Virus record (IMG/VR): IMGVR_UViG_3300045988_176320
Span: 1-40,114 of that record
DNA from: a virus
Direction: 5' to 3' (one strand)
Length of the DNA stretch: 40,114 bases
The notes beneath the pieces were generated by a model, which did no database searches, had not been told where the DNA came from, and saw only the letters and a list, made by a program, of their open reading frames with translations. Both the position numbers and the translations under genes were made by a program. Below, piece by piece: positions 27,723 to 31,966 of this stretch; position 1 is the stretch's first letter; every line of letters begins with the position of its first letter.

Positions 27723-28511
27723 TTACATATCAAACAGACTCATTTGTTTATATTTGTTTTGCTTCTTTCTGCGTTGTGGAATATATCCATTTTCAAACCG
27801 CGCTTGCAATTCCGCGAGTGTGCAGTTTGGCTTAAACGTATTGTAGCTGTCCGGCTCCATATCGCACAGACGTTGCCATAAGTCGGGATAGGCTTTCCAC
27901 AAACTGTAAAGGTCTGCAAGGCATTGTTTCGGACAAAACCAACAGCCGCCGCGATATATTCCATCTACGCTGTACATCGGCGACAGTAGGTCATACCGCT
28001 TGCATATCTCGAATGCGTCTTGCTCGGTCAGCTTCTGCTCGACAAGCAAACTGCGGTATTTTCGCTTTTCTGTTTGTTTTTTTAGCATACGCTCCCAGCG
28101 GACAGGCTCGTCATAAGCTATGCCGACAAACGTATATAATACTTCGTCATTAAAATCCCGTATATAACGGTTTATAGCTCGAATTTTAAGAAGAGAGTTG
28201 CACCACGGTGAAAGAATGTGGGGGAATCCGTATGAGTATTGTTCAAATTTTCCACGTGTATATTTTTTATAGAACTGCTCCTCAAAACTTACTCCGCTGT
28301 ACGCGTGGTCTACTGTCACGCCGAATAACTCTTTCAGCCGCTTTTCCGCTGCCGGTATCCATTCCGCCATAAGCGGGTGCTCGCCGCTTATCTCATCGTT
28401 AAATCGAATATCGCAGTACATTACGCGGTCAATCGGTATGCCTTGCTCGGCGGCAAGGATAAGCGTTGCCATACTGTCCTTGCCGAACGAAAGATTAAAA
28501 ATGTTCATCAC
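27723..28511 (-). CDS. PAPS reductase / PP-loop ATP pyrophosphatase family protein (DndC-like fold)
   Basis: PP-loop NLSFGKDS (an SGGKDS-type motif) lies at the N-terminus. The size and the WFCP motif region (GGCWFCPKQ) fit the phage PAPS-reductase-like family. Confidence 0.8.
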   Translation of the reverse strand: MMNIFNLSFGKDSMATLILAAEQGIPIDRVMYCDIRFNDEISGEHPLMAEWIPAAEKRLKELFGVTVDHAYSGVSFEEQFYKKYTRGKFEQYSYGFPHILSPWCNSLLKIRAINRYIRDFNDEVLYTFVGIAYDEPVRWERMLKKQTEKRKYRSLLVEQKLTEQDAFEICKRYDLLSPMYSVDGIYRGGCWFCPKQCLADLYSLWKAYPDLWQRLCDMEPDSYNTFKPNCTLAELQARFENGYIPQRRKKQNKYKQMSLFDM

Positions 28512-29319: not shown

Positions 29320-29589
29320 TTAATTTTTTATGCCCCTTATAGCCCCGCGCAGCTCGTCCACGCTCGCGCAGTTCCCGACATTTATTCCTCGCGCAGCAGC
29401 AACCGTTCTGAGCAGCTCGGGTGACGACAGCAACGCTTTGTACTTCCCGTAAGTCAAGCCGAGCGCAGCCGCTTCTCCCGTCAACTCGTCCAACGCCGTA
29501 TGCGCCCTTTTTACCTGCCCGCTGTAAGCCCGTGACGCGGTCAGACTGTCCGTTATTGTTTTTTTACGCATTTTCGTCTCCTCTCTCAA
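29320..29589 (-). CDS. Hypothetical protein (alternative start ATG 29571)
   Basis: 89-aa ORF overlapping the end of the methyltransferase gene. Confidence 0.5.
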   Translation of the reverse strand: MREETKMRKKTITDSLTASRAYSGQVKRAHTALDELTGEAAALGLTYGKYKALLSSPELLRTVAAARGINVGNCASVDELRGAIRGIKN

Positions 29590-30454
29590 TTTCGGCTATT
29601 ACCTCGAAAAGCGGGTAAATTTGCGCCGGGACTACCATATTGCCTAAACCTCTAAGTCTGTCCACCCTATGGGGACACCTTGTAACCACTCTACCCACGT
29701 CGGGTTCAGTTTGCCACCACCGCCCGATTGCATTTTCTTTCGCTCGTCTTCGCTTGTTATCTTCTCGTCTTCTAACTTTTTCAATTTCTTTCTGCTCCCC
29801 GAATTGCTCCACCCCGTAGCCATTGGCGTCGGGAATACCGCCATATAGCCAACCTGTTCCGCCAAATTCCCGTTTGGGTGCTTTATCCAGCGTTTCGCCA
29901 GACTTTCCAGACTGAAATTGCTCCGCATTGCGTCCGTCGCCGTCGGCGTAAGCCACAATGAACACCCGCTTTCGCTGATGAGGCGCTCCGACGTCGCAAG
30001 CTCCCCATATTCCCCATGACACGCTATACCCCAGCGCGGCAAGGTCGGCAAGTATTCGCTTGAAGTATCTCTGATTAGCTCGGGCAAACAAACCGGGCGT
30101 ATTTTCACCGACGAACCAGCGCGGTTTAATCTCGCCGATACATCTTGCAACCTCTCCCCACAAGTCACGCTCGTCACCATCGCCCTTACCCTTTCCCGCA
30201 AGACTGTAAGGCTGGCAGGGAAACCCCGCCGACAACACCGTAATTGCTCCTCTGTCGATTCCGTACTCGGCAAGCCACTCATTTCCAACTGTTCGTATGT
30301 CATGTAAATTAGGCACTCCTTTGAAATTTTTTGCCAACACCTTGCTTGCGTACTCGTCCGTCTCGCATTGGGCTATCGTCCTGAACCCCGCCCACTCCGC
30401 CGCAAGGTCTATCCCGCCTATGCCACTGCACAGGCTCATGTGCGTAAGCTCCAT
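29564..30454 (-). CDS. DNA (cytosine-5)-methyltransferase, orphan
   Basis: Motif I LCSGIGG, motif IV GFPCQPYS, motif VI ENTPGL, motif VIII QRKRVFIV and motif X GLGNMVVP. No cognate restriction enzyme is present. Confidence 0.85.
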   Translation of the reverse strand: MELTHMSLCSGIGGIDLAAEWAGFRTIAQCETDEYASKVLAKNFKGVPNLHDIRTVGNEWLAEYGIDRGAITVLSAGFPCQPYSLAGKGKGDGDERDLWGEVARCIGEIKPRWFVGENTPGLFARANQRYFKRILADLAALGYSVSWGIWGACDVGAPHQRKRVFIVAYADGDGRNAEQFQSGKSGETLDKAPKREFGGTGWLYGGIPDANGYGVEQFGEQKEIEKVRRREDNKRRRAKENAIGRWWQTEPDVGRVVTRCPHRVDRLRGLGNMVVPAQIYPLFEVIAEIERGDENA

Positions 30455-30486: not shown

Positions 30487-31065
30487 TTATTTGCCGCTAT
30501 TTCCGTCAAAACCGTTTTCCTCGATACATTTATCGAGAAAGACGTTTTCGCCGCTCTCATGTCCGTTTCTGCCCGCCAAACACGATTGTATGTACTTTTC
30601 CCGCACCGACCTTATTATCCCGCTCACCGTCTGCGGGCTTTTCCCAATGCGCCGCGCCACCCTGCTCTTACTGTGCCCCGCAAGCAGTCTTATGACTACC
30701 CCGCGCTCCTCCACGTCGCAGCACTCCAATATCCGTTTGACGCGCAACCTTGCGTCCGCCCGCCTCTCCGTCGCGTCCGCCTCCGTGCTCGGAAGCTCGC
30801 TCGTGTCCTCGTCCTGCGCTACCGTCCGCGCCCTATCCGCTTTCTCACGCCTGATATACTTCACCACGTAATACTTGACGTTCGTATACGCATACGTTTC
30901 CCACTTGCCCCGCTCCGGCTCATATCTCTCCAAGCACTTACACATGTACAACATTGCCGCCTGTCTTAAATCGTTGTCATACCCTACGCCGTAGTATTTG
31001 AGAACGTCGTTCACTATCCATTGCGATTTTTCTATAAGTCCCTGTTGCTCGGCGGTCAGTCTCAT
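30487..31065 (-). CDS. Sigma-70 family RNA polymerase sigma factor (regions 2 and 4 only; ECF / phage-type)
   Basis: Region 2 is DLRQAAMLYMCKCLERYEPERGKWETYAYTNVKYYVVKYIRRE. The region 4 HTH is ERGVVIRLLAGHSKSRVARRIGKSPQTVSGIIRSVREKY. Confidence 0.8.
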   Translation of the reverse strand: MRLTAEQQGLIEKSQWIVNDVLKYYGVGYDNDLRQAAMLYMCKCLERYEPERGKWETYAYTNVKYYVVKYIRREKADRARTVAQDEDTSELPSTEADATERRADARLRVKRILECCDVEERGVVIRLLAGHSKSRVARRIGKSPQTVSGIIRSVREKYIQSCLAGRNGHESGENVFLDKCIEENGFDGNSGK

Positions 31066-31090: not shown

Positions 31091-31966
31091 CTATATCTTC
31101 ACGTCGTCAAGGTTATCAAACAGCGCGTTCAACTCTTCGCTGCTGTACTCCCTTTCCGTTCCCGTCTTTCGTGCACGCTTACCGTCGCTCTTCTCCGCGC
31201 GTCCGTTTCCGCCCGCTGCTCTGTCCTGCTCCTTACCCAGCCACGAAGTCACGAACCTCATCATGCCGTGCTCCGTCTTCCTGTTGCGCGGATTCCCCAA
31301 CAGCCACCCCTGCATTTTACGCAGCTCCTGCTCGATGTCCACTGCCGGGTATAGCGGCGCAAGCTCGTCCACCATGTCCTGCGTCACACTAAAATTTCGT
31401 CCGTTACACATAATGAGATTTTGCACCGTTTTTGCCGGCGTCGGCGTTTCGGACGACGCATATATATTTCTTTTATTTTCTTTTATTTTCTTTTCTTTTC
31501 TTTTGTCGCATTCTGCATACAGACTGTCTGCATTTTTGAAAAAAATGTTTACATTTTTGCCGTTTTTGTCTGCATTTTGGATAAAAGTGTATACAACGTC
31601 AAGGGCGTAGTCTTTATTAAAAACGACCTCTGTGTTTCTCTTCGTTGCGGTCAGGAACGTTTCTTGAATCCGCCTGCTTGTTAATATTCGATACTTCTCG
31701 AACATCGTCGATTCGAATACTCCACGCCTTATGCAACAAGATACTATTTCGGACAGGAGCGACCGACCCACCGCAGATAAGCAGTAATCTCGCATGAACA
31801 AGAGCTCCGTGTCTATATCCCATTTCATGTAATAGCCGCGCGCATATATCGCTTGGTGCAGTTTTATAACTACCGCAAATCCTTCTATACCGAACTCGGC
31901 TTCTACAAGTTTTACACTATCGTCCAAATCAACAGGCAACGGAAATGTTCTTAATCCATGCTTCAT
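31091..31966 (-). CDS. Replication organiser: DUF4373 (Lin1244/Lin1753-like) N-domain plus DnaD-like C-domain
   Basis: FPLPVDLDDSVKLVEAEFGIEGFAVVIKLHQAIYARGYYMKW is typical of DUF4373. The C-terminus is MQGWLLGNPRNRKTEHGMMRFVTSWLGKE. Confidence 0.65.
   Translation of the reverse strand: MKHGLRTFPLPVDLDDSVKLVEAEFGIEGFAVVIKLHQAIYARGYYMKWDIDTELLFMRDYCLSAVGRSLLSEIVSCCIRRGVFESTMFEKYRILTSRRIQETFLTATKRNTEVVFNKDYALDVVYTFIQNADKNGKNVNIFFKNADSLYAECDKRKEKKIKENKRNIYASSETPTPAKTVQNLIMCNGRNFSVTQDMVDELAPLYPAVDIEQELRKMQGWLLGNPRNRKTEHGMMRFVTSWLGKEQDRAAGGNGRAEKSDGKRARKTGTEREYSSEELNALFDNLDDVKI
31467..31578. other. Candidate replication origin inside the organiser gene (A+T-rich, short tandem repeats, iteron-like TGTCTGCATTTT x2)
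   Basis: TTTCTTTTAT repeats run from 31467. TGTCTGCATTTT occurs at 31525-31536 and 31567-31578, spaced 42 bp apart. A CAGAC-T-GTCTG dyad is also present. Confidence 0.3.

Follow-up and report, generated by a model that had tools for sequence, protein, structure and literature searches.

Overlapping reading frames of a phage methyltransferase gene as the probable subunits of a two-polypeptide C5-cytosine enzyme

Introduction

Which of two overlapping reading frames encodes the cytosine methyltransferase of the viral record IMGVR_UViG_3300045988_176320, or do both contribute to it? The record (hereafter the window: a complete viral sequence of 40,114 bp with direct terminal repeats) carries on its minus strand a methyltransferase gene (frame A), within which a second open reading frame (ORF; frame B) lies wholly enclosed, on the same strand and in the +1 frame. 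A preliminary description of this DNA, made from the letters alone, had noticed the dual reading over about 310 nt (29644-29955) and offered four explanations for it: a lineage caught between two compensating frameshifts, recoding into two isoforms, paired indel errors in the assembly, and a shadow frame mimicking the motifs. The overlap was correctly seen and its extent was not, as it comprises the entire 660-nt B ORF; position 29955 marks only the codon with which the xPTPxAxD modules of B begin.

We infer (with a probability of roughly 0.7, from the analyses given below) that the locus encodes a two-polypeptide C5-cytosine methyltransferase from overlapping same-strand frames, in the manner of M.EcoHK31I, and we hold it very likely that B is a selected coding frame. 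The two frames are the following:

29564-30454, minus strand: frame A ORF (296 aa), a C5-cytosine methyltransferase that comprises motifs I-VIII, a linker lacking conservation, and motif X; proposed alpha subunit
29644-30303, minus strand: frame B ORF (219 aa), proposed beta subunit; +1 relative to A

To our knowledge, an overlapping-subunit arrangement of this kind has been demonstrated experimentally only for M.EcoHK31I. This enzyme of E. coli HK31 (specificity YGGCCR; Lee, Kam and Shaw 1995) is a two-polypeptide C5-methyltransferase in which the beta gene, starting at internal ATGs, is wholly enclosed by the alpha gene and uses a different frame; alpha comprises motifs I-VIII and X, beta comprises motif IX, and activity needs both chains (PMC2836561, PMC3404938).

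Motif content of the two frames

The translations of the two frames were searched separately against profile collections. Frame A matched PF00145 (1.5e-45; A residues 4-181) over only profile positions 2-176 of 324, TIGR00675 (dcm) at 4.4e-38, and phrog_363 over its full length (6e-78, residues 1-293). The catalytic motifs I, IV, VI and VIII as well as motif X, which characterize C5-cytosine methyltransferases, all stand in frame A; a target-recognition domain and motif IX were not found in A's own chain, where the PF00145 match stops at position 176. A profile (A4) of closely related proteins in which the N-terminal part of A is fused to the C-terminal part of B (A_N-B_C fusions) matched M.HhaI (1.6e-32, M.HhaI residues 13-178) only through motif VIII. 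The features of frame A are:

29912-30445, minus strand: catalytic part of A (PF00145 positions 2-176 of 324), under strong purifying selection across homologues
30413-30433, minus strand: motif I, LCSGIGG
30203-30226, minus strand: motif IV, GFPCQPYS
30092-30109, minus strand: motif VI, GENTPG
29951-29986, minus strand: motif VIII, APHQRKRVFIVA (QRKRVFIVA)
29708-29947, minus strand: linker of 80 residues (A residues 170-249), G/R/E/K-rich and of low complexity, read through B's repeat region
29657-29707, minus strand: EPDVGRVVTRCPHRVDR (A residues 250-266), B's motif IX-like segment as read in the -1 frame
29621-29656, minus strand: motif X, LRGLGNMVVPAQ (LGNMVVP), A residues 267-278, followed by a C-terminal helix; B ends here (TAG, 29644-29646)

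Frame A had been described as methyltransferase-like throughout 29644-29955, which holds for the flanks (motif VIII on one side, EPDVGRV...RVDR and motif X on the other) and not for the low-complexity linker between them.

Frame B alone matched no Pfam or NCBIfam model (nor did those B-type chains of relatives that hold motifs IX and X together) and it matched phrog_1008, a family labelled 'DNA methyltransferase', at 4e-21. The observation of two overlapping frames is confirmed. Three parts can be told apart in B:

29956-30303, minus strand: B residues 1-116 (B_N), a part that overlaps motifs IV-VIII of A and contains a conserved LPxWG (30025-30051)
29812-29955, minus strand: variable-number xPTPxAxD region with the modules WLTPTATD (29932-29955), NLAEQVGY (29845-29868) and FPTPMATG (29812-29835)
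29656-29712, minus strand: motif IX-like segment (B residues 198-216), KLNPTWVEWLQGVPIGWTD; consensus LNPxWVEWLMGxPxGWT

In alignments of B, residues G49, G92 and G97 of B_N are nearly invariant, as are T119, P120, T159 and P160 of the repeat modules, the number of which differs between close relatives; this region is presumed to be the target-recognition part. In the motif IX-like segment L199 and N200 are invariant and P201, W203-G209, P211, W214 and T215 are at least 90% conserved, no other part of B being as well conserved or as constrained as its core LNPTWVEWLQGVPIGWT. In proteobacterial-type loci the overlap of B_N extends over all of A. The three codon-level correspondences reported earlier (WVEW/VGRV, GWTD/RVDR and WLTPT/VAYAD) are all correct; the motif sets, which had been assigned to two phage Dcm groups, are instead two frames of one gene family. 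At motif IV (30203-30226, minus strand) the run GGG TTT CCC T yields G-F-P in both frames (GFPCQ in A, GFPAS in B), a small example of catalytic motifs pre-shaping the +1 reading.

Distribution and intactness of frame B

A tblastn search with B against phage genomes matched 58 records (among them phages of Paenibacillus, Mycobacterium, Porphyromonas, Microcystis, Lacticaseibacillus, Salmonella and Acinetobacter), with 27-37% identity between distant phage homologues, and 423 called proteins matched frame B. At all seven tblastn loci whose frame was checked the match is read +1 relative to the annotated methyltransferase, within a +1 ORF of 195-298 codons. The closest relatives of frame B were found in genome assemblies labelled Christensenellaceae (L104, L105, L109).

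Scanning IMG/VR with a B profile returned more than 437 loci, and the viral set analysed here consists of 93 (80 from the scan and 13 fetched earlier). The N- and C-terminal parts of A share one frame and those of B share the +1 frame in 84 of them; among these 84 loci (GC 0.44-0.66) B is free of stops in 81 and spans 134-352 codons, A is intact in 83, and the third frame holds 14 stops on average. A parallel scan of genomic sequences (one genome per species) gave more than 203 loci, whose contig titles cover at least eight phyla; of the 80 that were analysed, the two-frame arrangement is present in 73, with A intact in 72 and B in 66. Taken together, frame B is open in 147 of the 157 loci with two-frame arrangement. 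B without A was not met among loci with identifiable flanks, A_N going undetected only at L068 and L108. The position of B's stop relative to A differs widely between loci.

The two-frame state is the dominant and stable architecture. Of the proposal that a lineage had been caught between two compensating frameshifts, the frameshifts remain a plausible origin (relatives with one shift and with a single chain are known, see below), and the transient character does not. Recurrence across 157 independent loci, in many assemblies and including isolate phage genomes, together with two intact frames in the window, also leaves a negligible chance that the second frame is an artefact of two compensating assembly indels, even though near-identical contigs bearing single indels (P0010, P0003) do occur.

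In the Paenibacillus larvae phage Shelly the same +1 ORF already bears the annotation 'g55 internal gene' (SHELLY_56) and lies within SHELLY_55, the gene of a DNA-cytosine methyltransferase; RefSeq labels both genes 'DNA methyltransferase'. Our literature search on this +1 ORF recovered annotations only, and no paper on its function, family-wide conservation or overlap. Neither the size of the family nor its near-total dual coding nor the variety of its frame architectures appears to have been recognised so far.

Selection on the two frames

Two approaches were used to separate constraint on B from what A imposes on it. The first was a synonymous-codon shuffle in which the protein and the codon usage of A are retained. 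Cross-species scores of the B frame exceeded this null by 3-13 standard deviations in 26 of 28 pairs of distant phage homologues, and the real +2 frame mostly fell inside the shuffle range; the longest open run of the shuffled +1 frame averaged about 90-125 codons. A Porphyromonas phage may serve as illustration: its frame B (LLTPTASDALRKRIKLESLAKRFRKHPNGNLSEQL) and that of the window (WLTPTATDAMRSNFSLESLAKRWIKHPNGNLAEQV) are 68% identical in the repeat region, and their frame-A translations of this DNA do not resemble each other.

The second was our own implementation of an OLGenie-like count over 150 homologue pairs (72-95% nucleotide identity in the N region), in which the two letters give the class of a change in the two frames (N, nonsynonymous; S, synonymous) and ranges come from bootstrapped codon columns; SS sites are few and the pairs are not phylogenetically independent, by which the following ratios should be read:

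Motifs I-VIII region: A dNN/dSN 0.25 and dNS/dSS 0.16; B dNN/dNS 0.68 (0.55-0.81) and dSN/dSS 0.43
Variable region: A dNN/dSN 1.11 (1.00-1.24) and dNS/dSS 1.15 (0.92-1.50); B dNN/dNS 0.73 (0.66-0.81) and dSN/dSS 0.76
Motif IX-like segment: A dNN/dSN 1.06 (0.41-3.08) and dNS/dSS 0.37 (0.25-0.86); B dNN/dNS 0.20 (0.07-0.41) and dSN/dSS 0.07
Motif X region: A dNN/dSN 0.35 and dNS/dSS 0.17; B tail dNN/dNS 0.80 (0.51-1.32) and dSN/dSS 0.39

From these regional ratios it follows that the linker of A evolves neutrally, constrained merely to remain open, that B is under purifying selection throughout, most strongly at LNPxWVEWLMGxPxGWT, and that A's EPxVGRVAxGVPxRVDR is largely the -1 shadow of B's constrained motif. 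The suggestion that one frame only mimics the motifs therefore fails for B and applies in reverse, to A. The alignment of homologues that had been recommended as a check on frame B speaks for it, both in the scarcity of its stops and in the selection acting on it.

Another explanation is that B is a non-functional relic or by-product, either of a recent frameshift or of a +1 frame kept open by A's amino-acid and codon make-up. Canonical methyltransferase genes examined as controls (n = 8) lend this some substance: over motifs IV-VIII stops are scarcer in the +1 than in the +2 frame of six of the eight, and weak B_N-like matches occur in six of eight (10-38 bits, versus 40-184 bits in the family). 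The coding strand of the window, moreover, is T-poor. The controls contain 1-16 stops in the +1 frame over the B_N region, with open runs of 133-145 codons in three and 154-168 codons in three more. Against a relic stand the shorter open runs and far lower cross-species B similarity of the shuffle null, the purifying selection on B when conditioned on A's class (strongest at motif IX), and the variable region, where A evolves neutrally and B does not. We therefore regard a relic as very improbable. Assembly error and a chance shadow ORF were both rejected as candidates, on the recurrence of the architecture, the shuffle null and the intact B ORFs.

Runs of 154-168 codons over motifs IV-VIII were seen in the canonical single-chain C5-methyltransferase genes of low-GC Streptococcus/Clostridioides phages (L096:1201-2334, L099:998-2071 and L100:995-2263). 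The +1 run of IPP14 goes on as ECSLLDILEKEAPEEFFLSEEQ; such runs may be due to chance, intrinsic to the sequence, or remnants.

Translation starts

A candidate start signal for B lies inside A:

30316-30321, minus strand: AAGGAG, Shine-Dalgarno-like, 12 nt before B's ATG (30301-30303), within the A codons K-G-V

The GGAG of this site is kept in four of five distinct close relatives, and many other loci with an internally started B have AAGGAG or AGGAGA 7-8 nt before B's ATG. A different solution is found in 36 distinct loci, where a tandem NTG-A-ATG places B's ATG (MSWLFSQ...) 4 nt after the start of A (often GTG or TTG) behind one Shine-Dalgarno sequence; here A and B are nearly coextensive, their stops usually falling within about 15 nt of each other. 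Because B possesses either its own ATG with a Shine-Dalgarno sequence or the tandem ATG, these signals would argue for two separately initiated polypeptides over ribosomal frameshifting, and they speak in the same way against the isoform-generating recoding proposed earlier.

Programmed frameshifting into one polypeptide nonetheless deserves consideration: a +1 shift after motif VIII followed by a -1 shift after motif IX would restore the module order of a canonical enzyme, single-chain and one-shift relatives are known, and methyltransferases are among the phage genes reported with frameshifts (PMC10885494). Yet B is open and selected far upstream of any shift site and, in the tandem-start loci, begins practically together with A; A is continuously open and intact (83 of 84 viral and 72 of 73 genomic loci); the stop of B is highly variable in position; the IX/X junction of the window, read by eye only, holds no X XXY YYZ heptamer; and two shifts per protein would be inefficient. 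We thus judge frameshifting to be quite improbable, and two separately started chains the better account of the start sites.

Relatives with other frame architectures

The function of B is illuminated by relatives that distribute the same modules differently. In the Gordonia phage MelBins, a single frame of gp5 (495 aa) runs from motifs I-VIII through three LLPTPxA modules and RLNAAFAEWMMMLPAGHVTD to motif X (LKAIGNGVCP). In L069, the Mycobacterium phage SmellyB (gp89/gp88) and the Streptomyces phage Vash (gp32/gp33) frame A stops shortly after motif VIII, and the +1 frame (SmellyB gp88, Vash gp33) carries the repeats, the IX-like motif and motif X together; this pairing of motifs IX and X in the second chain recurs in L079 and L088. 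B-type modules are also fused in frame after motif VIII in P0108, P0109, P0119, P0121-P0130, P0134, P0165 and P0179; on the fusions P0109 and P0119 the PF00145 alignment reaches profile position 291-293 of 324, through the IX-like segment, which by our reading is about where motif IX is located. Where the B-type IX-like segment shares a frame with motif X, it precedes it by about 20-75 residues. Because relatives carry B-type repeats and the B-type motif within methyltransferase chains, we take the C-terminal half of B to be the recognition/motif IX part of the enzyme, as judged from sequence.

The SmellyB (L094:1189-2188) and Vash (L095:1192-2248) genes are annotated as overlapping pairs of 'DNA methylase', as are those of several further Mycobacterium phage records, and the +1 frame of Vash is open well upstream of the annotated gp33 start. 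In the fusion lineages L005 (856-1422) and L007 (1905-2645) all three forward frames are open at once, over 188-371 codons, and the motif X-bearing frame has no ATG near its conserved part. In L079 (1918-2448) and L088 (2104-2631) the third frame holds an HNH endonuclease ORF (CxxCG…HHKD…N…CxxCH), inserted directly after B's GWT motif; the insert moves motif X into B's frame and duplicates B-tail-like sequence (SLEAITHEHFKHWQES, resembling ELRPLAMDKFQEWLQQ), as a homing element would.

Single-indel variants occur as well. P0010 (L008:1501-2310), otherwise identical to the window, has lost one G from TGGGGAG at about 30000-30010 (minus strand), which joins the N-terminus of A (…SWGIW) to B (ELATSERL…); P0040 is a single-indel fusion at another GGGG run (DLW|ERLQ), and P0003 has a frame switch that, judging from its protein sequence, is consistent with a 2-nt deletion. 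Such contigs suggest that frameshift variants arise readily and give long fused ORFs since both frames are open; homopolymer slippage, sequencing error or population variation may be their source.

Comparison with known systems

Compared by description, the window resembles M.EcoHK31I in that B lies inside A on the same strand and in another frame, alpha holding motifs I-VIII plus X, beta a motif IX-like segment. It differs in that, according to published accounts, the recognition domain belongs to the alpha chain of M.EcoHK31I, whereas the xPTPxAxD modules of the window are in beta and the variable region of its alpha is neutral, and in that M.EcoHK31I belongs to a restriction-modification system, whereas the window gene is an orphan in the replication module of a phage. 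The plasmid names M38 and C23 may refer to the M.EcoHK31I chains of about 38 and 23 kDa, those of the window being estimated from length at about 33 (A) and 24 kDa (B). Searching E. coli genomes with a related gene yielded only four matches, which carry no annotation beyond DNA cytosine methyltransferase, and did not locate the EcoHK31I system.

M.AquI is a natural two-subunit C5-methyltransferase, divided in the variable region, which, together with artificial fragment complementation, shows that C5 enzymes tolerate such splits (PMC3404938). L069, SmellyB gp89/gp88 and Vash gp32/gp33 share its division of content (alpha with motifs I-VIII; beta with the recognition part, IX and X). The window, by contrast, has motif X in alpha rather than in beta, which sets it apart from M.AquI-type enzymes, and its second chain overlaps the first in +1, whereas no frame overlap is mentioned for M.AquI (PMC3404938), the subunits of which we take to be separate genes. 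Relative to M.HhaI and PF00145, the A_N region aligns and motif X is present in A, but neither chain of the window alone holds all ten motifs. Finally, 'g55 internal gene' of the Paenibacillus larvae phages and phrog_1008 represent the same +1 ORF as B.

Proposed mechanism

We reason that alpha (frame A) would provide motifs I-VIII and X, with an unconstrained linker in place of the recognition domain and motif IX. Beta (frame B) would be started at its own ATG (30303) behind the internal AAGGAG and would consist, in order, of an N-terminal extension overprinted on alpha's motifs IV-VIII, the xPTPxAxD modules and the motif IX-like segment. After the example of M.EcoHK31I, the two chains may assemble into the active enzyme, beta contributing the small domain. 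As to origin, a one-chain enzyme could first have been split by a +1 shift after motif VIII (a state that persists in actinophages), a second shift then putting motif X back into alpha's frame. The intrinsic openness of the +1 frame may be why the overlap could evolve.

In this scheme binding of alpha to beta is presumed, and the making of both chains and their joint need in methylation are supported indirectly, by the start codon and Shine-Dalgarno signals and the purifying selection on both frames. Several observations weigh against a two-subunit enzyme. AlphaFold modelled B alone (112-row alignment) with a pLDDT of 58 and a pTM of 0.29, residues 1-61 scoring below 50 and being predicted as disordered; in the natural fusion P0109 (18-row alignment) the catalytic domain was modelled well and the B-type part reached a pLDDT of only 30-40 (a deeper alignment that included fragments, A3, was set aside, as MAFFT had scattered B_C fragments across catalytic columns). 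Neither a Foldseek search of the B model against the PDB nor a profile search of B against PDB sequences returned a match. The assignment of the B segment to motif IX accordingly draws on position, pattern and in-frame relatives, the segment having no significant stand-alone match. Part of the openness of B_N, and of its likeness between homologues, seems intrinsic to catalytic-domain sequence, and the 12-nt spacing between AAGGAG and ATG in the window is longer than optimal. Lastly, in about one fifth of the gene calls that end in a B-type C-terminus, A_N is fused to B_C and motif X stays behind in the -1 frame; in these lineages the motif X frame has no obvious start, and its expression is left unexplained by a two-subunit model.

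B might also be a genuine overlapping gene whose product is unrelated to completing the methyltransferase, for instance an overprinted regulator or an anti-defence protein. Such a role would suit a B_N that is predicted to be disordered, lacks a known homologue and experiences purifying selection of its own, and no model or structure ties B alone to methyltransferases. It sits poorly with the presence of B's repeats and LNPxWVEWLMG in frame beside motif X in methyltransferase chains, the fusion of B-type modules after motif VIII in several lineages, the lack of a constrained recognition domain or motif IX in A, and the failure to meet B without A wherever flanks could be identified. We consider an unrelated role unlikely, and favour a beta subunit that completes the enzyme.

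A wider interpretation is offered tentatively, at somewhat less than even odds. Four modules (motifs I-VIII; B_N; repeats with motif IX; motif X) might have been redistributed among frames repeatedly, at least four architectures having been seen, with near-complete dual coding of up to about 300 codons from a tandem NTG-A-ATG behind one ribosome-binding site. B_N could have arisen de novo by overprinting on the best-conserved stretch of a methyltransferase and now mediate subunit assembly, alpha's EPxVGRVAxGVPxRVDR would be a mere shadow, and M.EcoHK31I would be one member of a very large, unrecognised heterodimeric phage clade with a specificity subunit invisible to standard annotation.

Annotation pipelines call one gene at such loci and drop the embedded ORF. 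If beta holds the recognition modules, hundreds of phage and prophage cytosine methyltransferases are at present annotated without their specificity determinant, and alpha expressed alone would give false-negative activity. The same-strand overlap of this family is long and deeply conserved, and it combines a clear functional logic with natural intermediates (single chain, one shift, two shifts); alpha's VGRVA..RVDR illustrates how the conservation of a protein motif can be a frame-shifted shadow of another motif on which selection truly acts. Naturally split C5 enzymes already serve as platforms for targeted methylation (PMC2836561).

Genomic neighbourhood

The methyltransferase gene is an orphan in the early/replication module of the phage genome. 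Its neighbours, identified by Pfam matches on the identical contig L008, and one further ORF are:

30487-31065, minus strand: sigma-70-like ORF
31091-31966, minus strand: ORF with a Lin1244_N domain
27723-28511, minus strand: ORF that we take, as a guess from its sequence, to be possibly PAPS-reductase-like

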